A stretch of DNA of 58,859 nucleotides, the filler included, from Jimgerdemannia flammicorona (Eukaryota), in the NCBI GenBank assembly GCA_003990765.1. It is 3 parts of 3 records of this genome, joined end to end, with 100 filler letters (N's around TTAATTAATTAA, not from the genome) between each part and the next. Parts side by side here need not be neighbours in the genome. Positions count along the whole stretch, not along the records: positions 1 to 19,558 come from RBNJ01001912.1; 2 more parts are not named here. The stretch is one strand, 5' to 3'. Made by a program: the position numbers and the translations under genes. Each line of letters begins with the position of its first letter. Positions within the stretch are counted from its first letter, which is position 1. Shown here piece after piece: positions 5,771 to 56,886 of the stretch. Under the pieces are notes generated by a model, which was not told the origin of the DNA, made no database searches, and was given only the letters and a program-made list of their open reading frames with translations.

Positions 5771-5981
5771 GATATTGTGATGTATGCAATTGATAATGGA
5801 GTACCAGTGACTGCTAAGATCAGACGACATAATGGCATGACAATCGAATAGACAGCCTGACCCATTAGGTGATCACTCCAAAAGGAGCAATGATAATCCG
5901 AGCCAAAAGGAAGACTACGTTATTTAAAGAACCATACTCCACCTCAGGAATCAGCACCAAAGAACAAGTATCCACCACACA

Positions 5982-6899
5982 ATGCCTCCAATCCGCTACC
6001 CCAACCACCACTCTTCCCCCTTACCTGGCCCAAAGACTCTAATCCTTGAAGCAATCAAGAAGGCTATTTGGCACCCAGACACCTCTGAACATCTGAACTT
6101 CTACACCAAGGATCTTGGACACTTTATCAATTACCAGTACATAATGACCCAATAGCTCAAAGATACCACTGAATGAATGACCCTCTGGTATGATTACGAA
6201 ATTGGACACCACCTTCATAATGAAACCCAAGAAGGTGACCAGAAAGACCTCATTGCCGAAATGTTAACTACCAGCTGGCTAATCAAGAGAGCCCTCCATG
6301 TCTACCAAATCTTCCACCATATTCCCTGGGCTATAGCATACTTACAAGGAGTAACTGCTGGAAGTCTTGCCTGTCTCTCAACTGAAGATGCAGACTGGAT
6401 AGAATCAGAAGTAGCCAACTCTATTGGTAGTAACCAGGTCACTGTAGGAAGCCAACAAACTGAGCCCACTCAACCAGGCTTTCACACCACTCCACTCCGA
6501 GACAACCACTAAGATCACCTAATGAGTCTCATGGAAATCTTCGAAGGACCACCCATTACTATTACAAAACCTGTTGGAGCAACCCCAACTACTCACCACC
6601 CTGTCAGCTACAATTCGCACCTCATCGTTTGGGAACTAAATCAAGAAGTCCCAGAAGTCCCTACCAATACAGAAACTGGAGGATCTGAGGAAGAAGAAGA
6701 GGAGGAACAAAGAATCTACCAATCCTCTGTCCGCCTTCAAGCAGTCTAAGAGTTGGAGAATTTCATCGAAGATGATTGGCCACAATTCTACCCCCTCACC
6801 TCCTGGTTGGCACTCCCACCCTTTGAAGAACAGAATGAAGAAGTCACAATCCAGCAAGATGATTGGTTCACTGACAAAGGGTACTTTACCATTCAGTGA
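5982..6899 (+). pseudogene. disrupted copy of the LTR-encoded ORF (5' LTR)
   Basis: Same sequence as 16047-16973 with a deletion near 6005 and TAG/TGA/TAA stops. Confidence 0.8.
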
Positions 6900-7146
6900 T
6901 CTAACGTCCATTTCCTCAGTCCAGTTAGCCAATGTTCGTCAGCAAGTCAGTAACATCCGTTTCCAGCGATATCACCCCCAACAACCAAATCCAGTACTGG
7001 CACTCGTCTTATCTCAATTCAGTGATCCAATGTCCGTTTCCTTAGTCCGGTTAGCCAACATTTGTCAGTAAGTCAGTAACATCCGTTTTCAGTGATACCA
7101 CCCACAACATCCATATCCAGTACTAGTACTCATCTTATCCCAATTC
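6892..7146 (+). repeat. 2 x 126-bp direct repeat in the LTR U3 region (also ~16966-17220), CCAAT-containing, enhancer-like
   Basis: TTCAGTGATC...TTAGCCAA...GTCAGTAACATCCGTTT...CTTATC repeated at 6892 and 7018. Confidence 0.8.
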
Positions 7147-7217
7147 GGCGCAAACAACTATCACACCCATATTTAGCAATTAAACCACCACAATATAGTA
7201 TACCTTAGCCCCCCCCC

Positions 7218-7272
7218 CATAGCTAGCAAAATTGTATAAATAACCCTATATCTTAAAGTGAATAAACCTCAG
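7218..7272 (+). promoter_or_regulatory. LTR core: TATA box (TATAAATA) followed by AATAAA; second copy at 17293-17347
   Basis: CATAGCTAGCAAAATTGTATAAATAACCCTATATCTTAAAGTGAATAAACCTCAG; near-identical module in the LTRs of elements B and C. Confidence 0.7.
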
Positions 7273-7973
7273 TCAGTTTGTGTTTAAAAGTAAAAAAAGG
7301 AATTACAGAGAAACCTCACTGCCTCCAAGAGACCAGATAAATTCTGAGAACAAGATAACTAGAGCAATGATCGCTCAAGGTTTGAGTTAAAGAATTTTCT
7401 CTTGCCACGGAAAAACGTTCAAGATTCGCTGCTAAGGAAAGCCACATGAAAAGCCGTTCAGTTCAGTTTAAAGACCTGCCGCTAAGGAAAGTTATATGAA
7501 AAAACCGTTCAGTTCAGTTTAAAGACCCGCTGCTAAAGGAAAGCTGCACAAAAACTGCCAACTGCTGCCAAGATCCTGCCAACCCAACCATCGTGCATTC
7601 GGAACCAACCACCATTCGAGGTTCAAGACTGCACATTTGAGACCTGCCATTCAAGTGTTAAGACCCCAGCCAAGGAACCCAAGGATACTAGAACAAGACC
7701 GTCAGTGAACAACCAACTGCCAGAACCCACCCTCAAGTTAAGAACAAATGTTCAACTGAACTATTGACCTGAACGATTCCCTACTGCACCATGAACTGTG
7801 TATGTTCAAGAAGTAATTCGCCCCGAGCCTCCATCATATAAATCGAATGCACTGATCATGTGACTATCTACCCGTAATCGTCGTGAATGCACTCATATCC
7901 ATCACACACTTCACCAAGTGGCACATTGAGCCATGCTTGAAGCAACTAGAGATACAAACCGGATGCTACATTT

Positions 7974-7990
7974 TGAGGGCTCAACTGGGA
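7974..7990 (+). other. primer-binding site, probably tRNA-Pro type (decayed)
   Basis: TGAGGGCTCAACTGGGA, 3 nt after the LTR, vs canonical tRNA-Pro PBS TGGGGGCTCGTCCGGGA; 3 of the 4 mismatches are G>A or C>T. Confidence 0.65.
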
Positions 7991-8036
7991 AAGTTTTCAA
8001 AAGACTTGACCATTTGGCTCAAGAACCCAGCTATCT

Positions 8037-11000
8037 ATAGTAGAGAACTTAACAGGACCAAGTCAGCAACCAAACCAGGGGCAGCAACAGCCCTCCTCAG
8101 CAGAAAAGAAAGCCCACACTCTTGTCAGAACAGTAGCCAGGACCCTATTCAACACCAGTAGCCAGAAAACTGAATCAGAAGAAAGAAGTGACCCAGATTA
8201 TGGTTTGACTTCAAGAGAAAGGAGACAACTCAAAGGACAACCAGAACTGCCCCTTCAGATCCAAGACTTAGGCCAAGAAGAAGAAGAGGACATTCCCGAG
8301 GAGTATCAAATCCTTATCCATAGGAAGAACTCAGACAGAAGTGACTACATAACTACTGTTGTTACTTGAGTCACTCCACTAGACCAGGTATACTTTGAAA
8401 CATCAGAAGGAGAAGAGGACTACCATCCATATCAACCAGAGCAAGATGATGATTGGGGATCAGACCATCAAAGAGACGAATTCAACCTATACTATTATCC
8501 AGACAGCGACACAAACCCACAACAAGGTGAACAAGACCTCACTACTTCACAACAACAAGGGGCAGATGAACTCACTATCAGTTATATCAGTCCACTCCCA
8601 CCATCAGTTGCTCAAACTTCAGTACCCTGGTCACTCATATCTCACCACTATCACCAGTCAATCAGAAGATCTCCACCACTACCCAGGACTTCAACCCCAG
8701 CATTAATTAGAAGAGCCAGATTACCCTCACCCTCACCAAAACACCGCCCTCTGCCAGCACCACTAGATCATCAAGTACTAGCACCACCACCTTTCCCATC
8801 ACCCTGAGGATCCGCCAGATCCCCTACTCCTGAACAATACTCAGATAGTGAAGATGAGCCAGACATGAGCTACCTTCAGAAGTTCCATGGTGCAGACAAT
8901 GAAGACATCAAGGAATTCTTTGGAGAAATTGAAGTTCAAGCAGCTGCCAAACAATGAGATGCTGCAAGAAAACTCAGAATTGTGGAGTCACTCCTGAGAG
9001 GACCAGCCCTACAGAGGTATAATCAAGCCAAGTAAGCCGGAGGAGGAATCCATGCAGAGGAACTGAATGATAGCCTTCAACCTGATAGAAACCATGTAGC
9101 AAGGTACATAATTCACAAAGCCTGGCTCCATGCCCAGTTCAATGGATTCAAGTACCAATAAGAAGTACAGGAGGCTTTGACCTATATGAGCCAAGCTGCC
9201 AATGAAACTCCCAAGAGTTTCTACCATCGGATTCAAGCTCAAATGATCAAGGCAAACCTTCAACCAGCAGTCCAACTAGCTCTAGCTTCAACTACCTTCC
9301 TCAATGGCTTATACCCAGAACTTTGAAGGCAAGTTATCAGGATGGGATATCGAAACATTGAACAGCAAGTTGCTGGAGCACAAGGATGTTGGGAAGCAGA
9401 TTATAAACCGGTACAACAAGTACAAGGCTATCCTGAGCCAATCTGAGCTGAAACTCCAAGGACCTGAGGAACAACCATGGAGCAAGAGAACGCCTTCCTC
9501 AGAGCCCAAATAGCCAACTATGAGAACAGACCAGCACCCACAAATCTGACTCCATTCAGGAAACCACAGTAGCAGCCACCATCAAGAGTTCAAGAAGACC
9601 CCATGACAATGCTCACCAAGCAAATGAAGGACCTGGCCATCGCAGTTGCCTAGCTGAAGAACCGAGGTAGAAGACAACAAGACTACCATCATGATAACAG
9701 ACCAGACTACCGGCAACAAGATAAAAGAGGTCCTGCTCCCACACTACCAGCTGCAACTACAGTCTCATCAGCGACTGGTTCCTATGGTCCCACCTACTTC
9801 AACTGTGGAAATCAAGGCCACATCCAGAGGAATTGTCCAAGGAACCAATCCACCCAGTCCAATGACAGAAATGTCAACCTCTTTCAGGTAGATGAAGAGA
9901 CTCAGGAAATGAAAGAAGAAGCAGCCTGGCTCCATGGTCAAGAAGATGACATCTATCCATACTTCGAGGCTTTTCCATCTAAGGTGACATGGGAAGCTGC
10001 CCCTGCAGAGACCAGAGGATGAGGAAGACCACAAAGGAACCCCCCACCTCAACTGCCAGTAACAATATCCACAGGCAAGCATCTGCAATATGACCATTCT
10101 TCTTCAGATACTCTATAAGAACAGGAGAAGCAAGTTAGAAGAGATACTCCTGAACCAGAAGCTGGACCATCTAGGATAACCCCCAGCTCTACCCTGCCAG
10201 ACCTTGAAGAAGATAAGCATATGAACATAGAATCTTCAGCTGACAAAATGCCCATCAGGAATGAGAGACTACACTCCAAGGGACCAAGACACCGAAGAAG
10301 CAGCAAGCCCCATGCAGCAGCCTCACTTTGGGAACATATCCGCCTACAGAATGCTGGTCTTACAGTTGAGCAAGTCCTCAAGAATGCACCAGAGGTCAGG
10401 CGAAAATTCCTGAAAGAAGCCAAGAAAGATACCAAGAGACTTCCAGTCCAAGGACCACATACTCAAGAACCTAGCACTATCCACATAGCCTATGAGAGCC
10501 AGCGATATGAACATCAATTTACAAGACTCACCAATGGAAAAGTGCATGGTGAAAATGCCAGAATTCTCGTCAATACTGGAGCAGCAGTATGCATCATCAC
10601 CCAAAGGATTTTGGAGTGAATTGGATGGGAAATAGATGAAGGAACCAAAGCAAGAGTTATCATGGCCAACGGATCAGCTTCTACACCCCTTGGACTTGTC
10701 AGAGACATCCCCATTCAAGTCGGAAAGACCTGCCTCAATGTACCCAAAGCCATTGTAACCCCCACAACCTCCTATGACCTGATTCTGGGAACTGACTGGT
10801 TAAGCCGAGTCAGAGCTAATGTAGATATTAAGAAACAACTCCTGGTCTTCTCCATTCATGGACAGAAGTACAAGGTGCCCATTGACTTGAAAGGATTATC
10901 CAAAAAGATGAATCAAGCCTCAGAAACAGAATGGCAAGGATATGGTAACACCCCCATTACTACTGAGGATGAAAGTGAGGCCAATTTCCTACAAGAACTA

Positions 11001-14000
11001 GGAAGTGATTTCAATGCCCCAAGGGACCAAGAAAGTGAACAAGAAGACTCTTTCATTGGAGTTATTGGTGTCGAAGGTCTGGAAGAAAGCATTGATAGAG
11101 CCATTAATGCAAGGGCAGCACTTGAGTCTGCAGGACCATCTGCTCAACCACCATTACCACTGGTAGAAAATCAGATCATGCGAGCCTTTCGTCAAGGCAT
11201 ATGTGAATATTTTATCAGCTTCCACTCACCAAGAGATGATTGCAGCAATTGCCGAATCCTGGATCTCAAGAAGGTTCCAATGCCAGAAATTGATGATAAG
11301 GACAAATTGAAGCAAGCACCTTCCCACAGTCGAATACAACCTCCAACCCCGAAGACCTTCAAGAAGACCTATAAGGGAGGACAGAAGATCCTCGCCCACC
11401 AAACATTCAAGTCCCTTACTATCGAAAGAGAAAGAAACAGCTCTTACACTATCACCTGGGCCCTCCAGATCACACAGCCCACCTATGACAAGTATCGGAA
11501 GAGATTCCCTACCAGTAGGGAAGTCAAACAGCGAAATAAAGACTTTGTCAAGAAGGGACATTGTGATTGCAGAAAGACCTTTACCTGCCACTGGTATGAA
11601 CATCGAGATGTTCACCTCAGCAAAGATATCTACAAGAGCCGAGTCTAGAGAAAGGATTCCACTCTGCAAGAACCTCGAATTCACTGGGCCTGTTGGAAGT
11701 GCAAAGAAATCAACCATGAAGGAGATTGCAAGATCAAGAGCAAGACCTCTATCTGGGACCTACCATTGGAAGTTCTTGCCATCATTTACTGGTACTGTCG
11801 CCCTCATCAAGAAAAAGAAGGTATCAATCTTGCCTTCATCCTTATGGAAGCTCTGGACCCTCTAGGAAAGACTGGATTCAATTACACAAGAAACTCCAAG
11901 ACAGGAGCTCACTGGCCTTTCTTCAAACTGGAGTGCATGAACTTCTCACCTATAATGGCAACAGCTGAAGCACTATTTCTCAAAGCTGAACCAATTATCC
12001 AGGTCAAGCTGCTTTCACCCTGAGTACAGCCACCTCTTGCACAAATAGAAGGATCAGTTGGTTATAACCTCTGCCTCCCCTACCAAGCAAGAATCCAACC
12101 CAGAAGTACCAGGACTTTTGATCTACAGATCACACTTGCTATACCACCTGGGCATTATAGACAATTGGCCTCAAGATCCTCATTGGCAACCAAAGGAGTC
12201 ACAGTAGAAGGAGGAGTCATCAATCAGGACTACCGAGGTCTCTTGAAGGCCATTATCTGCAATTCTAGTAGAACCAGCTGATTCTTCAGCCCTATGGAAG
12301 CCATCTGCCAAATCCTATTTATCAAGACATCACAGCCGACTATCCAAGAGGTAGACCAACTAGAAAATACCAACAGAGGACAAGGAGGCTTTGGAAGCAC
12401 CAATAGAAATCTACGGACACTACCTATCGAGGTTCATTTAGCAACAGTTACTCAATTCTGACAAATGAGACCCCACATCTACCACCCAATCTGAGCAAGA
12501 GAAGACATCCTCCTGCAGCCCTACCAGCAAAAAGGCCTAAATGTGCACCTACCAGTAGAAGCAAACAACTTGATATTTGCACCATCACTGGAGCTTCAAA
12601 AGGAATGCTACATCCTCCTGGCTGAAGAACAAGTTCATGACCAGATATCACCGATCCACATCTCTATCAGAAACTTGGGCTTCAAAGTGATAACCATCCC
12701 CAAGGGAACAACACTGGGATATTTCGAACCACTGATAGACACCTATAAGGAAGAAGTCTTTGAATTCTTGGGAAATGGCAAGCCCTCTCCGGTGAGACTG
12801 ACGGTACCAGGGAGGAAGACTCAGCAAATTCAGCAATCAAAGCCATCAACATCGAGACAACTCTAACCAAGGACTAGCAACAACAGATACAGGAGTTGAT
12901 AGAGGAGTACAAAGATATATTTACCACCACATATGTATGATAACTTCCCACCATATCAATATGGAGAACACCCTATACATACTGGAGATGCAAGACCAAT
13001 CTGACAACAACCCTACCAAACTCCACATCATCTGATTGAATTTGAACAACAACACATAGATGAAATGCTATGAAATGGAGTCATCAGACCATCATCAAGC
13101 CCCTGGGCTTCACCAGCAATCATAGTACCAAAGAAAGGAGGATGGAGATTAGTCGTGGATTTCAGAAAACTCAACAAAGTCACCACAGAAGATGCCTACC
13201 CACTGCCAAGAATTGATGACCTCATCAATGCCCTTGGAAAAGCCAAATACATGACCACTACTGACCAGTTCCAAGGATTCCAAATAATACCCATTGCCAA
13301 AGGAGATATCTGCAAGATGGCCTTCATCACCAGATGAGGACAGTACGAATATCTACGAATGCCCTTTGGACTCTGCAATGCACCTGCCTCATTCCAACAA
13401 ATGATGAACTATGTCTACTGGGATCTCATTGGAAGAAATGTACTAATGTACATAGATGATGTAATCATCTACTCTGAGACATTCAAGCAGCATTTGCAAG
13501 ACCTCCGCAAAGTATTCAATACCATTCAAAATTCAGGACTCAGACTCAATGTCAAGAAGTGCTTCTTCGGAAAACATCAAGTCAAATATCTGAGATATGT
13601 TGTCTCAGCTCAAAGAATACATGCCGACCCCTGCAAGGTGGAGAAAGTCAAGAACTACCCAACCCTGACCTCAGCAAAGGAGACCCTATCTTTCCTTATG
13701 CTGGCATCCTACTATCGATAATTCATCCCAAGGTTTTCAGATAAGGCAGCACCTCTCCGAGATATCTCCAAGAAGGACCAACCATTCTACTGGAAAGAAG
13801 AACAACAAAAGTCATTCGACCTACTCAAGAAGGCCCTTACTGAAGCCCCTGTCCTGGTGTGACCAGACTTTGGCAAACCATTCATCCTGACAACTGATGC
13901 CTCAGCCTTAGGACTTGGATCAATTCTATCTCAGCAAGATGACCAGAAGAGGGAGTATGTTATCGAATATGCTAGCAAGGCCACAAATGAAACACAAGCA

Positions 14001-14309
14001 AACTATGGAGCCACTAAGTTGGAATGCCTAGCAGTAGTTTGGGCTGTGGACCACTTCTGACACTATCTCTTGGGAAAGAGATTTGCTCTCATCACTGACC
14101 ATTAAGCTCTACAATGGTTGTTCAACAAGCCGGAGCCCTCAGGAATCTTCACTAGATGGATCATGTCTCTGCAAGAATATCAGTTCACTATTGTCTACAA
14201 GAAAGGTGCTAAGAATTCCAATGTCGATACCCTGTCAAGAATCCCGTGAAACCAACAAGAAGGGAAGGAACCCCCACAAGAGAAGGCTGCTTCCCGCTCA
14301 CCCAAATGA
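8037..14309 (+). pseudogene. single-frame gag-protease-dUTPase-RT-RNase H polyprotein of element A (many in-frame stops)
   Basis: ORF fragments 10221, 10662, 11766, 12543, 13155 and 13359 share one frame. Capsid-like KFHGADNEDIKEFF at 8865; knuckle (C>Y)FNCGNQGHIQRNC ~9796; protease ILV(D>N)TGA; RT MPFGLCNAPASFQ..YIDD; RNase H LTTDASALGLG..KLECLAVVWAV. The start at 8037 is inferred (ATA from ATG). Confidence 0.9.
11990..12405 (+). pseudogene. dut: dUTPase domain of element A
   Basis: Motifs GSVGY(N)L, SRSSLA, GGVI(N)QDYRG, AICQ and RGQGGFGST, in the polyprotein frame. Confidence 0.9.
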
Positions 14310-15515
14310 ACCAAGAATTGCACCTCGCCCTCACCTGGAGTCTGCACCATAGAAGCTTCAAGAAAGGAATCCAACCAGCTCACAAGTTATTTATCCAAAG
14401 GAATTTCAAGAAATTCCAAGAAGGTGATGGCAAACTTTGGAGAGTAGAAGGAGAGCAGTACACCCGAGTTCCAAGAGAGGAAGAAATATTGAAGATCCTG
14501 ACAACAAATCATGACCAAAATGCATACTGAGAAATTGGCACCACTATTGCAAGAATCAAGAAGCAATACTGGTGGCCCAAGATGAGAAAACAAATTTCAA
14601 TGCACATTCAACAATGTGATACCTGCCAAAGATACTGACAAAAGCCTACTGACAAAGTACCATTAATACCGATTGCAGCACCAGCTGGAGCCTTTCAAAG
14701 ACTGGGAATAGATATTATTGGACCCCTACCAGTAACCAGCCGAGGAAGATGCTACATCCTCACTATCGAAGACCACCTGACAAAATGGTCTGAAGCCTTT
14801 GCCATTGAGACTGCTGATGCCCAGATAATTATTGGGATCCTGTATAATGAAATTTTCAGCTACCATGGTGTGCCCAAGGAAATCATTACAGACCAAGGCT
14901 GAGAATTCATCAACCAAGCCATGAAGACCTTTGCGAGCAACTTCAAGATCAAGCTACGACTAATAACAGCCTACTACCCATAGGCAAATGGACTCACTGA
15001 ACGAATGAACCAGACCATCAAGCGAGGTCTCAGTAGAACTGGAGATCAACTAAACTGGGATATCTATCTACCGGCAATTCTGTTCAGCATCCATACCTCT
15101 AAGGCAACCACTACCCAACAGACCCCCTTCTATTTGGTGTATACAAGATCCTACTAAACCAGTCCAGCTAGATCTGTCAAAACGAGTCACAGAAGAGATC
15201 ACCCGGTTATACAACATATGCCAGCAAGCATGAGGATTTATCACCAAGGCACAAGAATGACAAAAGAGGTACTACAACTGCAAAGCCAACCTCAAACCCC
15301 TGCTCATTGGACAAAAGGTTCTGGTGTACCATACCATCATAGAAGGAAATTGGAGTGCCAAGCTTGAACCAAAATGGGAAGGCCCCTATCTCATACACCA
15401 AGTATTCTCATACCACACTTATCAACTCAAGACCTTGGATGGAGTTATACTCAAGACCAAGATACACCATAACCGCATAAGACTCTACTACTCAAGAGAA
15501 GCAAAACACATTTGA
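14306..15515 (+). pseudogene. integrase of element A (HHCC zinc domain, rve core, GPY/F), separate ORF with its own ATG
   Basis: MNQELHL...; YWWPKM..CDTCQ; GIDIIGPLP; IITDQG; NGLTERMN; KLEPKWEGPY. In the -1 frame relative to RT-RH; one decay frameshift near 15147. Confidence 0.9.
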
Positions 15516-15830
15516 ACAATCCTGTTCACTCTGTCTGTGTCATCTCCACCGGAGATATGACAGATGTTTCATTTGGAACTCAAGAAAGCCAACAACATTG
15601 GAACCAGACTCAAGCCCATCCACATGACAGACATTGTTACTAAGAAATTGCCTCAGATTACAAGAAATACTATTTCCGATAGGTTCGAACCCCCAGCCGC
15701 AACTATGGGAGCCCTCGCCCTAGACAAGGATGGCCAGTCCTCACAAATGCGCTGACATTCTGCTCATCCCTGGAGTAAAGACCACCCAACCCTGTGTAAC
15801 CCTCACCACCAAGGACAGCTCTAATTTTGC

Positions 15831-15840
15831 AAGGGACAGA
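15831..15840 (+). other. polypurine tract of element A
   Basis: AAGGGACAGA directly before the 3' LTR TG. Confidence 0.65.
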
Positions 15841-18042
15841 TGTGACGTATGCAATTGACAATGGAGTACCAGTGACTGCTAAGATCAGATGACATAATGG
15901 CATGACAGTCGAATAGACAGCCTGACCCATTAGGTGATCACCCCAAAAGGAGCAATGATAATCCAAGCCAAAAGGAAGACTATGTTATTTAAAGAACCAT
16001 ACTCCACCTCAGGAATCAGTACCAAAGAACAAGTACCCACCACACAATGCCTCCAATCCACCACCCCAACCAGATCTCCTACTGCTCTTCCCCCTTGCCT
16101 GGCCCAAAGACTTTAATCCTTGAAGCAATCAAGAAGGCTATTTGGCACCTAGACACCTCTGAACATCTGAACTTCTACACCGAGGATCTTGGACACTTCA
16201 TCAATTACTGGTACATAATGACCCAACAGCTCAAAGATACCACTGAACAAATGACCCTCTGGCATGATTACGAAATTGGACACCACCTTCATAATGAAAC
16301 CCAAGAAGGTGACCAGGAAGACCTCATTGCCGAAATTTTAACCACCAGCTGGCTAATCAAGAGAGCCCTCCATATCCACCAAATCTTCTGCCATATTCCC
16401 TGGGCTATAGCACACTTACAAGGAGTGACTGCTGGAAGTCTTGCCCATCTCTCAACTGAAGATGCAGACTGGATAGAATCAGAAGTAGCCGGCTCTATTG
16501 GTAGTAACTGGGTCTCTATAGGAAGCCAACAAACCAAGCCCACTCAACCAGGCTTTCACACCACTCCACTCCGAGACAACCACCAAGGTCACCTAATGAG
16601 TCTCATGGAAATCTTCAAAGGACTACCCATTACCATTACAACACCTGTTGGAGCAACCCCAACTACTCACCACCCTGTCAGCTACAATTCGCACCTCATC
16701 ATTTGGGAACCAAATCAAGAAGTTCCAGAAGTCCCTACCAATACAGAAACTGGAGGATCTGAGGAAGAAGAAGAGGAGGAACAAAGAATCTACCAATTCT
16801 CTGGCTGCCTTCAAGCAGTCCAAGGGTTGGAGAATGTCATCGAAGATGATTGGCCACAATTCTACCCCCTCATCTCCTGGCCGGTGCTCCCACCCTTTGA
16901 AGAACGAAATGAAGAAGTCACAACCCAGCAAGATGATTGGTTCACTGACAAAGGGTACTTTACCATTCAGTGATCCAATGTCTGTTTCCTCAGTCCGGTT
17001 AGCCAATGTTTATCAGCAAGTCAGTAATATCTGTTTCCAGTAATATCACCCCCAACAACCAAATCCAGCACTGGCACTCGCCTTATCTCAATTCAGTGAT
17101 CTAACGTCCGTTTCCTCAGTCTGGTTAGCCAATGTTTGTCAGCAAGTCAGTAACATCCATTTTCAGCAATACCACCCACAACATCCATATCCAGTACTAG
17201 CACTCATCTTATCCCAATTCGGTGCAAACAACTGTTGCACCCATATTCAGCAATTAAACCACCACAACATAGTATACCTTAGCCCCCCTCCCCATAGCTA
17301 GCAAAATTGTATAAATAACCCTATATCTTAGAGTGAATAAACCTCAGTCAGTTTGTATTTAAAAGTAAAAAAAGGGATTACAGAGAAACCTCACTGCCTC
17401 CAAGAGACTGGATAAATTCTGAGAACAAGATAACTAGAGCAACAATCACTCGAGGTTTGAGTTAAAGAATTTTCTCTTGCCATGGAAAAATGTTCAAGAT
17501 TTGCTGCTAAGGAAAGCCACATGAAAAGCCATTCAGTTTAGTTTAAAGACCTGTCGCTAAGGAAAGCTGTATGAAAAAACTGTTCAGTTCAGTTTAAAGA
17601 CCCGCCGCTAAAGGAAAGCTGCACAAAAACCGCCAACCACCACCGAGATCCTGCCAACCCAACTGTCATGCATTCGGAACCAACTGCCATTCGAGGTTCA
17701 AGACCGCACATTCGAGACCCACCATTCAAGTGTTAAGACCCCAGCCAAGGAACTCAAGAATACTAGAACAAGACCGCCAGTGAACAATTGACTGCCAGAA
17801 CCCACCCTCAAGTTAAGAACGAACATTCGACTGAACCGTTGATCCAAATAATTCCCTACTGCACCACGAACTGTATACATTCAAGAAGTAATTTGCCCTG
17901 AGCCTCCATCATATGAATCAAATGCACCAATCACATGACTATCTACCCGTAACCATCACGAATGCACTTATATCCATCGCATGCACCAAGTGGCACATTG
18001 AGCTGTGCTTGAAGCAACTAGAGATACAAACCAGATGCCATA
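15841..18042 (+). repeat. 3' LTR of element A (~2202 bp)
   Basis: Starts TGTGACG and ends GCCATA (CA>TA); followed by TSD ATAT. Confidence 0.95.
16047..16973 (+). CDS. 308-aa open ORF inside the 3' LTR; unknown accessory protein with an acidic, disordered C-terminal half
   Basis: Uninterrupted ORF; segment KRALHIHQIF..AIAHLQGVT matches ORF3 of element B (AKRIHKLF..ALAHL*GVT). Confidence 0.7.
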   Translation: MPPIHHPNQISYCSSPLPGPKTLILEAIKKAIWHLDTSEHLNFYTEDLGHFINYWYIMTQQLKDTTEQMTLWHDYEIGHHLHNETQEGDQEDLIAEILTTSWLIKRALHIHQIFCHIPWAIAHLQGVTAGSLAHLSTEDADWIESEVAGSIGSNWVSIGSQQTKPTQPGFHTTPLRDNHQGHLMSLMEIFKGLPITITTPVGATPTTHHPVSYNSHLIIWEPNQEVPEVPTNTETGGSEEEEEEEQRIYQFSGCLQAVQGLENVIEDDWPQFYPLISWPVLPPFEERNEEVTTQQDDWFTDKGYFTIQ

Positions 18043-18300
18043 ATATATATTTCCAGGATGAGTTATGTTTAATTCTAGGTCAGGTTAAAGATGGGTAATA
18101 TATCTTTCTGGGTCAGGTTAAAGATGGGTGATGTACAATTCTGGGTCAGGTTAAAGACAGGTGACATATAATTCTGGGTCAGATAAAAGATGAGTGACAT
18201 ATAATTCTGGGTTAGGTTAAAGACAGGTGATGTCTAATTCTGAGTTGGCTGTTTTATGAGTCAGGTTTCAGGTTAATCAGATCAGGTTTGCAGAGTACTA
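18043..18300 (-). repeat. right subterminal repeats and terminus of the hAT element
   Basis: AATTCTGGGTCAGGTTAAAGAYRGGTGACATAT units are the reverse complement of the 55-430 array. Confidence 0.85.
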
Positions 18301-19558
18301 CTCATATCTAGTTACCTATATATTATCATATAGTGGTTGCTGAGTTCTTCAAATATGCCAGATTCTCTTTAAGATGTATCTCTTAGACTAACTCAAGTTT
18401 ATTATAAGCAAGTTCTTATTGGAGTGCCTTCCAAAGGTCTTATAGTCCTCAAACTTCTTATCTTTAACTATCTTGTTATCTCTTAGATTACTTGCAAGGA
18501 AGTGTATATATTGTACTGAGAAGACTGACTTTATTTCAGAGGAAATAAGAGGGGTATTTATACAAAATATAATTCAATAGTTTCTAAGATATAAAACTAA
18601 TATAAATTCCAATAACTAAAATAAAATGCCAGAACAGGAAAAACTGCTAAGTTTCAGGGTTGGCACTGATGGTTGTATAGATTCAGAATACTGGTATAAT
18701 TTGGTATCACATCAGAATACTGGTGCTGGTATTATTCAATATTACATCAGATACCAGTGCTGGAACAATTTCATATCACCTCAGAATGCTGGTGCTGACA
18801 TTATTCCATATTACAAGGGACTTAGAGCAAAATTTTCAAGATCATAGGGGCTTCATCCTTATCATCAGAGGTCAAGATATCTTCAAAGGAGATGAGATCT
18901 ATGAACATCTTATCAAGGTCACATAGATCATGTAGGATGACATCATCACCAATGATGTCATCATGTTTGACAGCAGAAAAATTAGGAATAAGGAGATCTG
19001 GAGCTCTCTAGTCTATAAGGTTCTCTTCTACAAAATAGGAAACAAATGTGAGGTCTTGGAGAGATCTAATCTGGATGCCCTTTATTACCGAATCTATAGT
19101 GTTTACAATATAAGTCACCCACCCAATCAACCAATGCCCCGGGGGCCCAACTCCCCTCCCTCAACCTTCCCTTGCCCAAGCACCACCCGATCACCCACAA
19201 CCTGGACCCTCCCACCACTCTTCTGGGAGATACACTGTACTAAACCCCTGCGGTACCCCCTGCCCACACCCCAATCCCACCACCAGCTATTCAAAATGTC
19301 CAACAGCAACCACTCCCACCGAGCCACCTTTTCACCAACCCCAACGCTACGCCCATTCTCAAATACATGCACCCAATGCCCCGCCAACCCAACCTACATA
19401 GCCAAGGCCCAGCCAAGGGTCAGCCACTCATCCCCAACCCCACCCACCAATCGCCGGCAAAGCACTCCCCATCTCCCCCCTCCCTCTCCACCCCCATCCC
19501 CCAACCCTAACCGATACATGATGCGCCCCCAGAACTCCTCCAAAACCTCACACTCACC

Positions 19559-39210: not shown

Positions 39211-39310
39211 NNNNNNNNNNNNNNNNNNNNNNNNNNNNNNNNNNNNNNNNNNNNTTAATTAATTAANNNNNNNNNNNNNNNNNNNNNNNNNNNNNNNNNN
39301 NNNNNNNNNN
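39211..39310. other. artificial contig spacer
   Basis: 100 nt of N with central TTAATTAATTAA. Confidence 0.98.
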
Positions 39311-43323: not shown

Positions 43324-43437
43324 CTTGTCTGGGTATTGGGGCTCAGTTTGTATGGTTGTTCGAGTAGTGGTGGTTGTTCATTGTTCAGCTTGAAAGTGAG
43401 AGATTCATCTTGAATCACCAGCCAATGGGCACCAAGT

Positions 43438-50301: not shown

Positions 50302-50738
50302 TGTAACATAGCGGATGCTAAGGTGGGCAAGTACATCAGATTTCTTTATCTTGAATTCTTGTCTTCTTGACTCCTAGAGTCAGTAGTTCCTTGAGGCCAA
50401 ATGTGTTCTAAGAGGTAATCCCGAAAGTCCCTTTATTGGTATACTTGTTCTTCTTCTAACACTGTTGATCTGAGGTTTATTCACTCGAAGATACTGGGTT
50501 ATTTATACAAGTTTGCTAGCTATGAGATGGCTACTGAGTTACGTGGCTAAGTTATGAGTCATTTAGACAATGTCAAAATGCTATACTAAATCAGGGTGTT
50601 CGATTTGGACAATGTCTAGAAATTTAGACAATATCAAAATCAGCGACTGCTAACTATAAAACTATACTACTTTGGGAATGGGTGCGATCAAGTATCTATT
50701 CCCTATTTCCATCTTCCTAATTCGGCTATACTATCACA
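50302..50738 (-). repeat. 3' LTR of element B (437 bp)
   Basis: TG..CA termini; matches 56492-56886; preceded on the minus strand by a PPT at ~50740-50748. Confidence 0.95.
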
Positions 50739-50787
50739 ACTTCCTCCTGAATAGATGGTCTCGTCTCTGAGACATCTATTCAAACTC

Positions 50788-51237
50788 CTATGCTTCGACT
50801 GTCTGTATGGTTTTGTACTGTTCAATCTGTTGCATGACTGTCTCCCAATGATGTCTCCTTATTTTATCGAAGTCGGTAGGGGTTACTCCTCACAGGTGGG
50901 CTAATGCTGATTTATCATCTTGAAATAGCTTGTGGATCCTTTTGGCAATAGTGATCTGTGAGTAGGAGAGTTGGCACTCTGCGATCCAGTCTTCTTTGGT
51001 CTTTGCTGAATCCTGGTTGAGCACCCATCTAAGCTTGAAGTACTCTTGGAACTCTGCCCGATATTGGTAGGCACTAAAATGTGAGATCTGAGAGAGATGA
51101 GTCTGCACAATACTCTGAATATCCTTATAGTATGCCTCTATGGTCAGAGGCTTGGTGGTGTGCCATTGTCTTTCAATAGCCCTTTGTGTAGTACTAGTGA
51201 TCTTGAGTGCCACTGCAGTGCTCCAGTTATTGGCCAT
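50788..51237 (-). pseudogene. ORF3 accessory gene of element B (env position), one internal TGA (probably CGA)
   Basis: MANNWSTAVALK...TIAKRIHKLFQDDKSALAHL*GVTPTDFDKIRRHHWETVMQQIE; homologous to the LTR ORF of element A. Confidence 0.7.
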
Positions 51238-52420
51238 GGTACTTCTTGAGTCAGTTTTGGTAAATGGTAGTGGGGATTATTGTGCCTGAGGGCTTTCGTA
51301 GTTGGAAAGTGGTCCCTTTTATATCTTGCACCAGGTAAGGTCCTTCCCATTTAGGCTCCAGTTTTCGCGACCAAGAAGCTTCTACTATATTCCAATATAC
51401 CAGAACTTCATCTCCTATCTTGATAATCTCCAGGGGCTTGTGGGTTTTTTCTGCATTGCTCCATTATAGTGCCTGTGCCTTGATTATATAATCTTCTGCC
51501 TTTTTCCTAATTTGATGCAATCTCTGTATCTCCGTATCCACATGCTTCCAGATTGTATCATTACCTGCTGACAAACTTCCACCAGAACCTTCTTTACTGA
51601 ATAGCATTTCTCGTGGTGTAAAATGGGTACTTTGTGATCATATATCCAATAGAGTAGATAATGCTATTGGTAGATAGTGGTCCCAGTTTCCATATTCATC
51701 ACAGATCTTGGCAATGATGTTCTTGAGGGTCTTATTGATTCTTTCTGCTTGCCTGTTTCCTTGTGGGTGATAGGCTGTGGTTTTGATGTACTGGATCTTG
51801 TACTTCTTGTAAAGAACCTCATGGAACTGGTTGACGAATTCTGTTCCTCTGTCTGTAGTAACTTGCTTTGGGGTCTTGAATCGGCAGATGATTTCTCTAT
51901 GAAAGAAATCGGCAATTGACTGTGCATTGGCTTCCTTGAGGGGTCTGGCCTCTACCTATTTTGTAAATAGATCTACTATTACAATGACATATCGGTTGCC
52001 AGTCAATGTCAGGGATAGAGGGCCAATTACATCCATTGTGATGTGGGCAAATGGTATTGGTTTGATGTCTGCTGATCCAGGGGTTTGATCCTGTTGGTCT
52101 TGTTTCTGTTTCTGGCATTTGTCACAGGTTCTGACAAATTGTCTGATATCTTCTTCCATTCCAGCCCACCACATGGTTCTTCTCACTTTGTTATATATAT
52201 TTGTTCCTCCTACATGACCTTGTTCATGTACCTCTTTTATCACTTGGTTCTTCCAGTGCTCAGGGATGACTAATTGTTGTCCTTTCTTGAGTATTTCTCT
52301 ATCAGTTTTGAATTGTTTCCATGTCCGATTAATAATTGTTTTTGTCCATTCTTCTAGATGCAGGGGCATCTTTTGCTGCCCCAGGTAGCTGATGATTCCA
52401 TAGTACAGCTCTTTATTCAT
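51227..52420 (-). pseudogene. integrase of element B, separate ORF with its own ATG
   Basis: MNKELYYGIISYL..HEQGHVG..WWAGM..CDKCQ; TMDVIGPL; KLEPKWEGPY; +1 frame relative to RNase H. Confidence 0.9.
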
Positions 52421-55400
52421 GGTGATTTTGTAGGGGTGGGGTCCTTCGGGGTGTCTGTGAGAGGGTGTCAGCATTGGCATTGATTTTTCCAGGGCGGTGG
52501 ATGATTGTGGCATCATATGCTTGCAGCTTCATGATCCATCGGGCATAGATTCCTTTGGGCTCACTGGTAGTGAGCAACCAAGTGAGTGCTGAGTAGTCTG
52601 TCTGAATGGTGAAGTGCCTTTCAGTCAGATAGTAGTGAAACTTCTCTACAGCCCAGATGACTGTAAGGCATTCCAGCTTATAAGACTCATAGGACTGCTC
52701 TGCCCCACAAGTACCTTGGCTGAGATAGGCTACCACGTATTCAATGCCATTCTTCTTTTGTGTAAAGACAGCTCCAAGTCCCATTGCACTGACATCCATC
52801 TGCAGAATAAACTCTTGAGTCCAGTCAGGTCTTCTCAGGATTGGAGCCTGGGTCAATCTGGTCTTAAGCTCATCAAAGGCTAGTTGCTGCTGCTGAGTCT
52901 ACTGGAACTGACCTCTTTTCTGAACAGATCATAGATAGGACTGGCAATGTGGGAGAACCTTCTGATAAATCTTCTGTAGTAGGATGCAAGTCCCATGAAG
53001 GCTCGGGCTTCAGTGGTACTGGTAGGTACTGGGTATGCTGCTACTGCCTTGATCATTGTAGGGTCTGTATGTATTCCTTCATGGTTGATGATGTGTCCAA
53101 GGTATGCAATTTCTTCTTCTCCAAACTTGCATTTCTTAGGCTTGATATAGAGGCCATGTTTGTGAAGCCTTCTGAGGATTTCCTCAATGTAGCCCAAGTG
53201 TTCTTTGGCTGTTTGGCTGAAGATGATCACATAATCTACATATACCATCATCCATTTCTCCATAACATCTCTGAAGATACTGTTCATCATTCGCTGGAAG
53301 CTTGCTGGTACATTGCACATTCCAAAGGGCATGCGGAGATAGACATAGGTTCTATCGGGGGTAATGAAGGCTGATCTTTTGCTGGCTTCAGGTGTAAGGC
53401 CGATTTGGTAGAATCCTGAGAACAGATCCAGGGTGGTGTAGAATCGTGATTCATTCCCCAGTATGATAAGAATATCGCCAATGTTCGGCAATGGTTGTCT
53501 GTCCTTTTCTGTGACCTCGTTGAGTCTTCTATAGTCTGTACAGAGTCTTGGTGTAAATTCTCCTGGTTGGCTTCCCTTCTTTGATGCAAGGATGATGGGA
53601 GAGGACCAAGGGCTGCTGGCTTCTTCAATGATGCCAGATTCCTCCATCTCCTTGATTTCTGTCTTGAGCCATTCTCTGTATGCCAGTGGAATGGGGCAGG
53701 CCTTCTGATAGATTGGCTTTGCATCTCCAGTATTGATGTCATGACAATACAAGGGTTTCTTGGTCTTGATGTCCTTGAAATCCGTGGCCAGTATATCCTT
53801 GAATGTATGCAAGAGGCTCTGTAATTCTTCCCTGAGGGGGTAGTTTCTTCCGATTGTGTAGGTGTGTTTGTCTTGGCTTTCCTCCTTCTTGTGCTCCAAT
53901 TCTGTAATTTTAGTTACTGTGAGGACTCCTCTTCCTGTAGAGCCGAATCCAGCTCTTCCTCATTGAGTTTGCCTGATGTTTGCGACCTCCTTGATTCTTG
54001 GATTAAGGACAGGTAGGATGAGCATTTGCGCCAGCCGATCCTTCTTTCTTACTTCGAATGGGATTGTTGGGTTGTGGTTCCTGGTGAGGAGAAGGATTTC
54101 TCCAGTATAATCTGAATCGATGACTCCTCCTTCTATAGATATTTTGCTCTTTGCCAGGCTGCTCCTTGTCTTGAGGATTCCAACATGGTTTGGCAGGATG
54201 GCTACTTCAATTCCTGTTCCTAGAATGGTGGTGGTCTGCAGTTCAAGTATTGTGTGTGTTGTAGTGGATAGGTCCATTTCTGCTGCATTCTCCGATTTGT
54301 ATTGTGGCATGACTGCATTAGGGTAGATTCTTCATATCTTGACTGTGATGTCTTCTTCATCATCGCTGTCATCCAATAGTTATGGTGGTCCATCTTCTGG
54401 TTCCTCCTGGTTCTTCTTTGGCTTGTTGGTGATCTTCTTCACCTCAATGATACAGGAGTAGCAGCAATCCAAGTGCTGGGCACAGTACATTCTTTCACCA
54501 TAGGGGCACCTTCCTAGTGGGGCATATCCATCTGCGATTCTTGTATACCATTCTTCCTCTGTCAATTGCTTGTCTTTTCCTTTCTTTATAGTAAACATAT
54601 AGGCTTCTTCTTCTTGGTCTTCCTCCATCTTGGGGCGGACTCCTTTGTGGACATTGATGGGAATTCTGATCTTCTTTCCCTGGTAAATGATCTGCATCTT
54701 CTGTGCACTGAGGTCAATCATTGCCTTGGCTTTATGAAGCCATTGATTGCCGATGAGGATATCATAGTTGGTTGCATTGGTGACGATGACATCCACAGGG
54801 ATAGTGGCCTCTCTGAACTTGATTGGTATATCTCAGATTTTTCCCAAGGGTGTTGCTTGTGTCCCATCAGCTGTGACAAACACCAATTTGGTGGCTTCTT
54901 CTATCTCCCAACCTAGGCGGTCTACTGCTTTCTTGGTGATGAGACATCCTCCTGCTCCTGTATCAATGATGGCTTCAAAGACCCAGTCCTTGATCTGGCA
55001 GGTAGCATAGGCTGATGTTTTCCGGTTATCTTCACTCTCTTCATCTGAATCTTCTTGAGCATTGTTGGCTTCAATTATTCTGTAATCTTGGTCTTTGCCG
55101 ATGTCTGAGATTCCTGTCCTCATTTGTTGTCTGAATGTTAGGATTTCAGCCAGCTGGCCAAAGGTTGCATTGACCTTTTGGTCCTTGAGGTCCTTGAAGA
55201 TGTCATACTTGAAGGTCTTGCTCTTGTGCAGTTTCTGCTCCTTCTTTCCTTTGCTTGATGGGGTAGTATTTCGAATAATATCTTCTACTGCTTGCTCCAG
55301 TTCAGCATCTTGTTCCAGCTCCATATCTTGATCAGCTTTGCTCTGTTGGTTCTCTTTTTCGATGACTGTTTCTGGTTGTCTTATTTGTGTCTGGGCCTTC

Positions 55401-56392
55401 TTAGGAGGTCTCCCTGGAGATCTTTTGTAGGGACTGGATCAGACATCCTTCTTGCCTGAGGTGGCAGGATAAGCTTCCCATTCCTCCCTCTCTTCCTCAG
55501 ATTCTCTAATCTCCTTGAAGGTGATAGTGTTTGCCTGCTCATGGTTTCTGATTGCATTGCTTGGATTGGCCTTTTGCTTGGTTTCTGTCATGCATTTGGA
55601 GGCATAGTGGCCTTCTTCTCTGTAATTGTAGCATGTTATTGATCATCTTGCATTTGTAGTGGCAAACTTCTGTACTGGCTTCTTCTTGAATTCCTTGACT
55701 ACATCACTGAGGTGTGCTATCATTTCCACGAACTGCTTGGCCAGTTCCTTCATTGGGTCGACCCTTCTCTGGTCTTGTGGTTGCAGTTGTGTATTCTGGT
55801 TGACTATGGTAGCCAGGATTGTATTGGTGACTCTTGGTGCTTGTTTGATTTTTACTCCGGTTATCCTTTCCATTGTATGGCCTTGAGGGTGTCTGGCAGT
55901 CCAGTATCTTTGGGCATAGGTAACCTTCTGTCCCAGGTCCAGTGGTGTTGGGGTAGATCGAATGGCTAAAGCAATTTCTTGGTGAATGCCTTTCATAAAG
56001 ATATTCTCAGCCACTTGGTCTTGAACTGCATCGGGGTAGTCAGCAAGGACTATTTGATGTTGGATTCTTGTATAGAATGTATTTGGGTCTTCAGACATTC
56101 CTTGGCAGATAGTATTCAGTTGATCTTTGAGTGCCTGTTTGATTTCGTCTGTATAGTAGGTTGCTTGGAGCCAGGTCTTGAAGGCCAGGATTCTTGCTGG
56201 ATCATCAGCTCCTTGTACATTAGCTGTAGTAAATACGGTTCTTGCTGGGCCTCGGAGGCTCACAGGGAGTAGGGCTACTTGTTGTGCTGCCGATAAGGTT
56301 CTTACAGCAGCATACTGCTCGAAATCATCAATGAAGGTGATGATTGATTCATCCGAAGTATATCCATGGAATATGGGTGGTCTCATATCCAT
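52413..56392 (-). pseudogene. gag-protease-Cys motif-dUTPase-RT-RNase H polyprotein of element B
   Basis: Fragments 56392, 55324, 54796, 54310 and 53899 are in one frame. AIIDTGAG; dUTPase 53930-54340 (TRSSLA, GGVIDSDYTGEI, GFGSTG); RT MPFGMCN..YVD(Y); RNase H FILQMDVS..KLECLTVIWAV; one decay frameshift near 52910. Confidence 0.93.
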
Positions 56393-56472
56393 TCTGTCTG
56401 ATTGTGTTGTGTGGGTTCTCGTTGTGGTTGTTCATTGTTCAGCTTGAAAGTGAGGGATTCATCTTGAATCAC

Positions 56473-56488
56473 CAGCCAATGGACACCA
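56473..56488 (-). other. candidate primer-binding site of element B (same position in C at ~43419-43434)
   Basis: TGGTG(T/C)CCATTGGCTG 3 nt inside the 5' LTR; cognate tRNA not identified. Confidence 0.5.
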
Positions 56489-56491
56489 AGT

Positions 56492-56886
56492 TGTAATGTA
56501 GCAGATGCTAAGGTGGGCAAGTACGTCAGATTTCTTTATCTTGAATTCTTGTCTTCTTGACTCCCAGAGTCAGTAGTTCCTTGAGGTCAAATGTGTTTTA
56601 AGAGATAATCCTGAAAGTCCCTTTATTGGTATACTTGTTCATTTTCTAACACTTTTGATCTGAGGTTTATTCACTCAAAGATACTGGGTTATTTATACAA
56701 GTTTGCTAGCTATGAGATAGCTACTGAGTTATGTGGCTAAGTTATGAGTCATTTAGACAATTTCTAGAAATTTAGACAATGTCAAAATTGGCAACTACTA
56801 ACTATAAAACTATACTACTTTGGGAATGGGTGTGATCAAATGTCTATTCCCTATTTCCTTCTTTCTAATTTGGCTATACCATCACA
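56492..56886 (-). repeat. 5' LTR of element B (395 bp; 42 bp shorter than the 3' LTR)
   Basis: TG..CA termini; the deletion falls between TT(A/G)GACAAT direct repeats. Confidence 0.95.

Follow-up and report, generated by a model that had tools for sequence, protein, structure and literature searches.

In this study, we found that a decayed Ty3/gypsy retrotransposon of Jimgerdemannia flammicorona, element A, appears to carry a full, element-specific accessory gene in sense orientation in the U3 region of each of its 2.2-kb LTRs, whereas the homologous gene of the sister family B lies outside the LTR. We assign this reading a probability of about 70%, the evidence for A coming from one element in which both gene copies are decayed. 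All coordinates (Table 1) refer to the window, i.e. the whole stretch of 58,859 nucleotides that was analysed.

Table 1. Positions, strands and supporting evidence of the elements, LTRs and genes in the window
Feature	Position	Strand	Evidence or remark
5' LTR of element A	5776..7970	+	blastn repeat pair; abrupt start TGTGATG; end GCTACA
3' LTR of element A	15841..18042	+	blastn repeat pair; end uncertain by 2 nt
Putative target-site duplication ATAT, 4 nt	left 5772..5775, right 18043-18046		weak evidence
Polypurine-like run AAGGGACAGA directly before 3' LTR	15831..15840	+	read from sequence; priming inferred
gag-pol remnant of element A (CCHC, PR, dUTPase, RT, RNase H, IN)	9117..15516	+	Pfam, tblastn
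Accessory ORF, 5' copy	5982..6899	+	4 in-frame stops, 9-nt in-frame deletion
Accessory ORF, 3' copy, open but decayed	16047..16973	+	308 codons; frame stop-free from 15993
Tandem repeat, 126 nt, 2.1 copies, from ORF stop on	16965..17224	+	twin in 5' LTR 6891-7146
Core promoter/polyA block (TATAAATA at 17310, AATAAA at 17336)	17293..17347	+	twin 7218-7272
Fragment C	18822..19107	-	candidate LTR start TGTAAAC at 19107
Fragment C TATA block	18551..18563	-	one mismatch vs A/B block
Element B2, sister family	50302..56886	-	LTRs 56886-56492 and 50738-50302
PPT AGGAGGAAGT of element B2	50748-50739	-	directly before LTR
B2 ORF3, 153 codons, 2 premature stops	50776..51237	-	homologous to A ORF N-terminal half

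Element A lies on the plus strand with the order gag-PR-dUTPase-RT-RNaseH-IN. Its direct repeats (5776-7966 and 15841-18038) are 91.8% identical over 2201 columns in blastn; the identity begins abruptly at TGTGA and the termini, TGTGA...TACA, are of the TG...CA type, the outer ends (7970 and ~18042; GCTACA versus GCCATA) having been set by eye. Since Pfam recognises a CCHC zinc knuckle, protease, dUTPase, RT, RNase H and integrase between the repeats on the plus strand, with the dUTPase (PF00692, 12024-12281, E 1.8e-16) between protease and RT, the repeats are LTRs and the ORF at 16047-16973 is in sense. The gag-pol remnant holds 22 stops in 1440 codons aligned by tblastn with the pol of L001, a metagenome copy of family B, and 168 transitions but only 6 transversions separate the 3' from the 5' LTR. 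Element A is an old Ty3/gypsy element of the PR-dUTPase-RT type that has decayed through C-to-T mutation. The order PR-dUTPase-RT-RNaseH-IN is common to A, B and L001, and the dUTPase of B1 matches PF00692 with E 1.6e-28. No primer-binding site was recognisable after the 5' LTR (3' of 7970), and the ATAT duplication is weak because the flank is AT-rich and its length is only 4 nt. The 55-nt TATA/AATAAA block is 92.7% identical between A and B, and a 41-nt form of the block has five matches within the window versus none expected. Two host genes, Ku and Rav1, are also present in the window.

In the 3' LTR the LTR start (15841) is followed by the ORF and then by TATAAATA (17310). The ORF stop lies 336 nt upstream of TATAAATA, so the ORF is wholly in U3, before the TATA module, in agreement with the original prediction; the LTR boundaries and the polypurine-like run beside the 3' LTR could likewise be mapped in this one A element. 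The leader from the LTR start to the ORF is 206 nt long, with TATTTAAA 40 nt and a pyrimidine run with terminal CAG 27 nt upstream of the ATG. A candidate second, partial copy of the gene ahead of the 3' LTR (15775-15918) was rejected (HMM score 0.1, without nucleotide repeat).

The ORF had been described as open in the 3' LTR and disrupted in the 5' copy, and this is the case. However, the open copy is no better preserved than the broken one, with 16 derived non-synonymous changes against 18 in the 5' copy. The two copies differ at 8 synonymous and 39 non-synonymous codons, and the A ORF has 4 arginines as compared to 21 in P0001, a member of the same family, with 17 of the 21 positions replaced and none in the reverse direction. 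Both copies in the window are dead relics, and the 3' copy is still open by luck, without maintenance by selection. The complete lack of stops in 326 codons of the 3' copy (Poisson P 0.007 at the gag-pol rate of 22/1440) could hint at past constraint on it, a hint set aside for the sole reason that the 5' copy shows as much non-synonymous decay as the 3' copy.

Despite this decay, the ORF has relatives. Of 333 candidates, three proved to be relatives, one of them an intact protein of 325 aa with 67% identity, and further ones show 25-31% identity. A profile search among 1.84 billion representatives gave nine matches at E <= 0.001, four of which are distant members that keep the conserved motifs (E 5.5e-23 to 4.2e-6); P0011, an 846-aa repeat protein also among the nine, was set aside as spurious. 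The ORF3 family as defined here consists of the A ORF, B ORF3, P0001-P0010 and P0012-P0018. Its intact members, of 214-342 aa and 25-67% identity, share motifs and an MPP start, and the family core is helical, about 130 aa long, with the motifs YEIGH..L and AK.IH..F....A.AHL. No Pfam family was obtained for the A ORF at E <= 1, and these sequence comparisons indicate that it belongs to a real protein family without a Pfam entry. No relation to gag was seen (hhalign probability 0.1%), and no long cellular homologue was found in the search. None of 86 pattern matches in metagenome contigs and none of 28 in viral contigs was confirmed as an A ORF locus. In A, B2, L001 and fragment C, the gene lies 3' of pol and 5' of the LTR TATA block, and all relatives with known context adjoin the same LTR promoter block. 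Conservation of the ORF, proposed as a check, was found at the level of the family, in its intact relatives, but not in the window, where the copies have decayed and the arginines are largely lost. A capture of the gene from the host is not supported, every relative found being either element-associated or on a short contig.

The proposed kinship of the ORF core with ORF3 of element B is barely visible in the direct match (39% over 46 aa at 51018-50881, with an internal stop, E 0.021 within the window), but is real by profiles. Comparison of the A ORF family with B ORF3 by hhalign gave a probability of 94.4% and an E of 8.8e-8 over 129 columns, and the family profile scored 24.1 bits on B ORF3, a score reached by 0 of 2000 shuffles (maximum 9.9). 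These profiles identify the A ORF as a homologue of B ORF3, albeit a remote one (17% identity; 12.8 bits in a six-frame scan). In two copies of family B, B2 and L001, ORF3 is not part of the LTR; L001 is the only metagenome locus retrieved with the TATA-block pattern, which had no match in genome contigs or in viral contigs. ORF3 stops 37 nt short of the LTR in B2 and is intact in L001. The differences fall on the three codon positions as 43/27/90 and pN/pS is 0.26 over 151 codons; B ORF3 is under purifying selection.

The order of landmarks is the same in A and B, namely integrase C-terminus, gene core and TATA block. Because the gene is in the LTR in A and before the polypurine tract in B, the start of U3, where plus-strand synthesis is primed, precedes the gene in A but follows it in B. 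The A LTR (~2200 nt) is about five times as long as that of B (395-437 nt), as had been claimed; the gene was held responsible for this enlargement, but together with its leader it makes up 1133 of ~1770 extra nt, about two thirds only. The remainder lies in a longer stretch 3' of the TATA box, 738 nt against 207 nt in B, and in the 126-nt tandem duplication. From the pol stop to the start of the ORF, A has 530 nt that are absent from B, including a 324-nt spacer before the LTR. The first ~20 nt of the LTR are similar (A TGTGATGTATGCAATTG, B TGTGATGGTATAGCCAAATTAG) and the last 7 nt (TGCTACA) are common to both, while the A U3 downstream of the gene shows, TATA block aside, no similarity to the B U3.

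In the explanation that we prefer, the layout probably goes back to a polypurine tract with an LTR-end cassette that became established on the upstream side of the gene, with loss of the former priming site. Transcription of the gene in a live A element would be confined to the U3 copy at the 3' terminus of the genomic RNA, as it is for sag of mouse mammary tumor virus, and the accessory protein would be made from a subgenomic and probably spliced message. A second copy would reach the 5' LTR through reverse transcription; there it would sit before the TATA box and would not be read by the element's own promoter. If only the priming site had shifted, the 324-nt spacer, the 206-nt leader and the longer post-TATA region would be left unexplained. 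Two candidate vestiges of an old priming site were rejected. The resemblance of ATTCAG/TGAT at the ORF stop to ATTCAG-GAGGAAGTTG-TGAT in B was picked out by eye and post hoc, and ACCACCAAGG at 15805 compared with 16579 was not significant, with 17 of 300 shuffles as good in plain scoring and 175 of 300 in transition-tolerant scoring.

Alternatively, the LTR end and the priming site may have stayed fixed while the gene and its leader moved into U3 just behind the conserved terminus, by recombination or template switching between co-packaged RNAs. The LTR ends common to A and B speak for this, as does the spacer without detectable gene remnant in A where B has ORF3. On the other hand, neither a junction nor an insertion footprint was found, and we regard such a relocation as rather unlikely. 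It is inseparable from a boundary shift because the A U3 after the gene is unlike that of B except for the TATA block, and both lead to the same outcome, a gene in U3. Of the original proposal that the priming site moved upstream, the collinear gene inside U3 in A and outside the LTR in B stands, but the direction and the mechanism are proposals only, since an upstream move of the polypurine tract, gene relocation or an A-like ancestor would each account for it.

A less probable view still is that the arrangement was a one-off, in which faulty reverse transcription of a B-like parent started at a cryptic upstream purine run and gave over-long LTRs to this copy and not to an A family. A single A copy is indeed seen in the window, and the searches of metagenome, genome and viral contigs gave no second A-type locus. 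Yet a random cryptic site would not be expected to resemble the B terminus over ~20 nt at the LTR start, this copy integrated with a target-site duplication, and no B-like polypurine tract followed by TGTGAT is left after the gene. It is hardly credible that the ORF is open by chance or stems from part of a captured host gene without role in the element. Although it lacks a Pfam family, its protein model is of low confidence (pLDDT 42) and the window copy is not under selection, it has intact relatives with common motifs and MPP start, a B homologue in which differences are in excess at third codon positions, the same LTR promoter block beside every relative of known context, and no long cellular homologue found.

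Fragment C may represent a further arrangement. The last 87 residues of a P0007-like member, with one internal stop, come directly after its candidate LTR start, which suggests that this LTR may start inside the gene; its LTR end is known from one copy, and at the 3' end there are two CA/TATAT candidates (5258 and 5106), strings that are common in AT-rich DNA. It is a tentative idea, and one to be doubted, that sister gypsy families in one genome have the U3 boundary after the gene (B), inside it (C, nef-like) and before it (A, sag-like).

The sag gene of mouse mammary tumor virus (MMTV), which encodes a superantigen, lies inside the U3 of the LTR. Like sag, the A gene is a complete sense ORF wholly in U3, doubled in both LTRs and present in genomic RNA only via the 3' U3. 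Unlike Sag, the A protein has no hydrophobic membrane segment, judged by eye, and no similarity to Sag emerged from the Pfam search with the A ORF or from the fold searches of PDB and BFVD with the L001 ORF3 model; moreover, it belongs to a Ty3/gypsy retrotransposon without env and not to a retrovirus. The accessory genes nef of HIV/SIV and bel2/bet of foamy viruses overlap the polypurine tract and U3. Fragment C resembles these in that its LTR seems to start inside the gene, with U3 encoding the C-terminal part only, in contrast to A, where the whole gene is in U3, and B, where none of it is.

The LTR of Cassandra carries a 5S RNA gene. Retrozymes have hammerhead ribozymes in their LTR (PMC12029980, accessible text). 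As in Cassandra and in retrozymes as portrayed there, a module is embedded in the A LTR and copied twice per element; theirs, however, are RNAs in non-autonomous elements, whereas that of A is a protein gene in an autonomous element. In the PosPlaTy3 elements of the basidiomycete fungus Postia placenta, which belong to Ty3/gypsy, the dUTPase lies between PR and RT, and there is an 'additional ORF with unknown function' (PMC2864245). A, B and L001 share with them, according to the portion of that article at hand, the order PR-dUTPase-RT-RNaseH-IN and an extra ORF, which that text does not place inside the LTR. LTR retrotransposons of bdelloid rotifers have diverse family-specific ORF3s after pol, in dUTPase-bearing lineages and some of them helical or coiled-coil, which as a rule form transcription units of their own and are expressed by way of spliced messages (PMC5408684, available sections). 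Those are from a different host group; the ORF studied here matches none of their GDSL, DEDDy, env-like and TM types, and the sections available mention no LTR-internal placement. In the literature covered, mostly without subscription journals, figures and supplements, U3-encoded ORFs are reported for retroviruses only, and no non-retroviral LTR retrotransposon is reported to have an entire accessory gene within its LTR.

The limits of an LTR are usually taken as a fixed border between regulatory and coding DNA. If the doubtful idea of three boundary states is true, the priming site and the LTR end would be movable as a unit along a retrotransposon, and A, B and possibly C would form the first such three-state boundary series outside retroviruses, providing natural material on the relocation of plus-strand priming sites and integrase-recognised ends. 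LTRs and solo LTRs could then carry genes, and if TATTTAAA were a promoter, the gene could be expressed from each LTR independently of the element; solo LTRs, however, do not replicate. LTR finders and maskers would hide or misassign such an LTR-borne gene during annotation. Because it comes from single decayed copies, the finding is so far a lead rather than a result, but it does define a small family of accessory proteins of retrotransposons that had no annotation.

In the product of the accessory gene, a helical domain of ~150 aa comes first, and behind it lies an acidic tail that is probably disordered. The structure model of the A protein (pLDDT 42) was unusable for fold search, whereas L001 ORF3 is confidently predicted to adopt a helical fold matching nothing known. 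With this model, no match at E <= 0.001 was obtained by Foldseek against PDB (TM at most 0.25) or in BFVD, and the best Z among 48,161 chains in VIA-align was 5.8, under the noise level for helical models. A sequence search of PDB gave one match with E 0.2, and the atlas comparison gave no coherent family. If this holds, the accessory protein would be new and would have a new helical fold. As for its role, our best guess, and a guess only, is a helical adaptor whose target would be the RNA or the particle of the element itself, or else host silencing.

Direct repeats at 5776-7966 and 15841-18038 (91.8% identity over 2201 columns), both with an abrupt onset of identity at TGTGA, enclose domains whose order on the + strand was taken from Pfam matches (see table), and pol was extended to about 15516 by tblastx and tblastn against family B, a sister gypsy family with copies B1 and B2 in the window. 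The repeat pair, together with the Pfam, tblastx and tblastn evidence between them, identifies element A as a Ty3/gypsy element on the + strand with the repeats as its LTRs. Read by eye, the repeats end in GCTACA (7970) and GCCATA (about 18042); ATAT stands on either flank, and a purine run, AAGGGACAGA, directly adjoins the 3' repeat. A 33-nt satellite array at 18057-18242 flanks the 3' end and recurs inverted at the window start (51-317). Element A seems to have been inserted into or beside this array, in which the R/U5 portion of C-type LTRs may be represented.

Coordinates of element A domains, the shared LTR block and family B features
Feature	Positions	Strand	Remarks
CCHC knuckle, element A	9654-10022	+	Pfam
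Retroviral protease, element A	from 10620	+	Pfam
dUTPase, element A	12024-12281	+	Pfam
RT, element A	13074-13721	+	Pfam
RNase H, element A	13863-14060	+	Pfam
Integrase, element A	14639-14902	+	Pfam
55-nt LTR block (TATAAATA ... AATAAA)	17293-17347, 7218-7272, 50470-50524, 56660-56714, 43617-43690		families A and B
B2 LTRs	56886-56492, 50738-50302	-	each starts TGTGAT, ends TTACA
B2 tract AGGAGGAAGT	50748-50739	-	adjoins 3' LTR
B2 ORF3	51237-50776	-	153 codons with two premature stops; 37 nt from its end to the LTR

The accessory ORF of element A (A ORF, 16047-16973) has 308 codons, with no stop from 15993 on, and lies entirely within the 3' LTR, while its twin in the 5' LTR (5982-6899) is interrupted by four in-frame stops and has lost 9 nt in frame, just as the original prediction of a gene inside the LTR, open in the 3' copy and disrupted in the 5' copy, had it. 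The LTRs of A and B share, at 92.7% identity, a 55-nt block holding a TATA box, TATAAATA (17310), and AATAAA (17336). A 41-nt pattern derived from it matches five times in the window, once per LTR, where no match is expected. This TATA box stands 336 nt downstream of the ORF end, which places the ORF in U3. By the replication scheme of retroviruses and LTR retrotransposons, the element's own promoter would therefore be unable to read the 5' copy, and only the 3' copy would be within the genomic RNA. The block is ~93% identical although the RT-RNaseH proteins of A and B are only 45% identical, which points either to very strong constraint on the promoter/polyA core or to its exchange between the families. 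Two stretches of the leader are conserved in both LTRs, namely TATTTAAA about 40 nt before the ATG (16000-16046) and a pyrimidine run ending in CAG 27 nt before it; these could be a candidate internal promoter or splice acceptor. The leader also contains several upstream ATGs.

In MMTV, the whole sag gene lies within U3, whereas the nef and foamy-virus bel genes straddle the priming site. The layout of element A would work like that of sag, with no sign of kinship of the accessory protein to sag, nef or bel proteins. U3-encoded genes in the literature searched were from retroviruses only, which is no proof of their absence elsewhere. Element A matches the type of fungal gypsy element characterized in passages of PMC2864245, which has an 'additional ORF with unknown function' as well as a dUTPase between PR and RT. 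Passages of PMC5408684 present ORF3s as family-specific and expressed from spliced messages, a general picture that element A would also fit. In structure, element A is a real and unusual variation on a known element type, and it carries a new small accessory-gene family.

Three relatives of the A ORF were found among 333 candidates in a word-indexed search, which found none among longer proteins. One of them, P0001, is intact (325 aa) and matches 97% of the query at 67% identity. Among 1.84 billion representatives, a profile search returned nine matches at E <= 0.001; one of these, P0011, is a repeat protein of 846 aa that aligned in five short stretches, and it was set aside as spurious. Four of the matches, P0004, P0006, P0007 and P0010 (149-342 aa, E 5.5e-23 to 4.2e-6, 25-31% identity), are distant members that begin with MPP and share motifs, among them YEIGH..L and AK.IHQ.F.H.P. 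Frames still open at such identity argue for long-term coding constraint, and the sequence matches indicate that the A ORF belongs to a real gene family.

The similarity of the A ORF core to ORF3, the accessory gene of family B, was weak as a single match within the window (46 aa at 39% identity, E 0.021, interrupted by a stop), but profiles bear it out. Searched with an 8-sequence family profile, the B frame matches over 130 residues (51204-50815), scoring 12.8 bits in a six-frame scan, and B ORF3 scored alone reached 24.1 bits, a score attained by 0 of 2000 composition-preserving shuffles (maximum 9.9). Profile-profile comparison of the A group with the B group, whose ORF3 has seven relatives of its own at E <= 0.01 among 12 candidates, gave a probability of 94.4% (E 8.8e-8, 129 columns, 17% identity). 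RNase H, integrase zinc finger, core and C-terminus, gene core and TATA block are collinear in A and B. The homology suggested by these comparisons is remote but real, and B ORF3 covers just the N-terminal half of the A protein; the acidic C-terminal half is common to P0001, P0006 and P0007 and absent from B.

As predicted, the gene is outside the LTR in family B, both in B2 and in L001, a metagenome contig carrying a B-family copy (84% identity, 1258-aa gag-pol frame). ORF3 of L001 (224-685, -) is intact, encodes 153 aa, shares 44 nt with the end of pol and terminates 41 nt short of TGTGAC. DNA identity between L001 and B2 is 65.4% in ORF3 and 84.4% in pol, and the ORF3 differences fall 43/27/90 by codon position (pN/pS 0.26 over 151 codons). 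B ORF3 is a selected gene outside the LTR, either fast-evolving or exchanged between lineages. The second B-like copy, B1 (39709-43907, -; 66% aa identity to L001 pol), has lost its 3' part in the assembly gap at 39211-39310; its LTR start, TATAACAG, differs from that of B2, TGTGATGG, by transitions only.

Since the LTR 5' end is set by the plus-strand priming point, the priming site in the A lineage would lie upstream of the gene. The upstream shift originally proposed fits this outcome and is plausible but unproven, and it is complicated by three observations. The A and B LTRs resemble each other in about their first 20 nt and in their last 7 nt, which suggests either that priming site and LTR end shifted, or were duplicated, together as a cassette, or that the gene relocated behind a fixed end. 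In element A, 324 nt separate the pol stop from the LTR, and a leader of 206 nt precedes the ATG; neither stretch has a counterpart in B. Gene and leader account for 1133 of the about 1770 extra nt in the A LTR; the rest comes from a longer post-TATA region (738 vs 207 nt in B) and from a tandem repeat of 126 nt. Neither of two candidate footprints of an old priming site in A was significant, no second A-type locus was found in metagenome, viral and genome contig collections, and the boundary may have changed in either direction.

A possible straddling state is seen in fragment C, a minus-strand piece just past the A 3' LTR, where 19091-18825 matches P0007 residues 161-247 (54% identity, E 4e-18) and the TATA block follows 260 nt downstream with one mismatch. 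The similarity reaches TGTAAACACTATAG at 19107, which resembles the B LTR start TGTGATGGTATAG; upstream of it are TATAT and then G-rich, more CpG-rich DNA unrelated to the elements. It is somewhat more likely than not, from this one fragment, that 19107 is a true LTR end and that U3 of this family starts inside the gene, an arrangement that would work like nef or bel. No pol was found nearby, and there is an assembly gap at a distance of 450 nt.

The two LTRs of element A differ by 168 transitions, 105 of them in CpG context, and six transversions. The elements have an observed/expected CpG ratio of 0.2-0.4, against 1.06 for host DNA at 20-39 kb. Extreme transition bias and CpG depletion are confined to transposons (A, 5776-18042, and all other elements), a pattern that fits methylation-driven C-to-T decay aimed at repeats. 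The A ORF copies differ at 47 codons (39 non-synonymous, 8 synonymous), and, polarised with P0001-P0003, the derived non-synonymous changes number 18 in the 5' copy and 16 in the 3' copy, with five ambiguous. Of 301 residues aligned with P0001, 217 are retained in the window protein, which has four arginines against 21; 17 P0001 arginines have become H, C, W, Q, Y or T and none has changed in the reverse direction, a one-way loss that is the signature of CGN decay. The A ORF in the window is dead, a relic. With the amino acids decayed to an equal degree in the two copies, its open 3' frame reads as luck. At the gag-pol stop rate (22 stops in 1440 aligned codons) about five stops are expected in 326 codons, and the 5' copy has four; the Poisson P of 0.007 for none counts against luck.

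None of 16 aligned family members had a credible Pfam match, and no PDB sequence match, kinship to gag or coherent Atlas neighbour was found for the accessory protein. The A protein model was poor (pLDDT 42). That of L001 ORF3, built from a 16-sequence alignment, has seven helices, one of 36 residues (pLDDT 84.9, pTM 0.75); with it, Foldseek against PDB and BFVD gave no match at E <= 0.001, and the best VIA Z among 48,161 chains, 5.8, did not reach the noise level given for helical models. As a low-confidence guess, the protein might be a helical adaptor for the element's own RNA or particle, or act against host silencing.

Elsewhere in the window, the interval between B1 and B2 contains a fourth gypsy remnant that is more distant (44416-46277, -), with dUTPase- and RT-like stretches 25-40% identical to L001 pol. 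Host genes between the transposon clusters are a Ku70/Ku80 beta-barrel exon (23476-24093, -) and the C-terminus of Rav1 of the RAVE complex (33902-34654, +).
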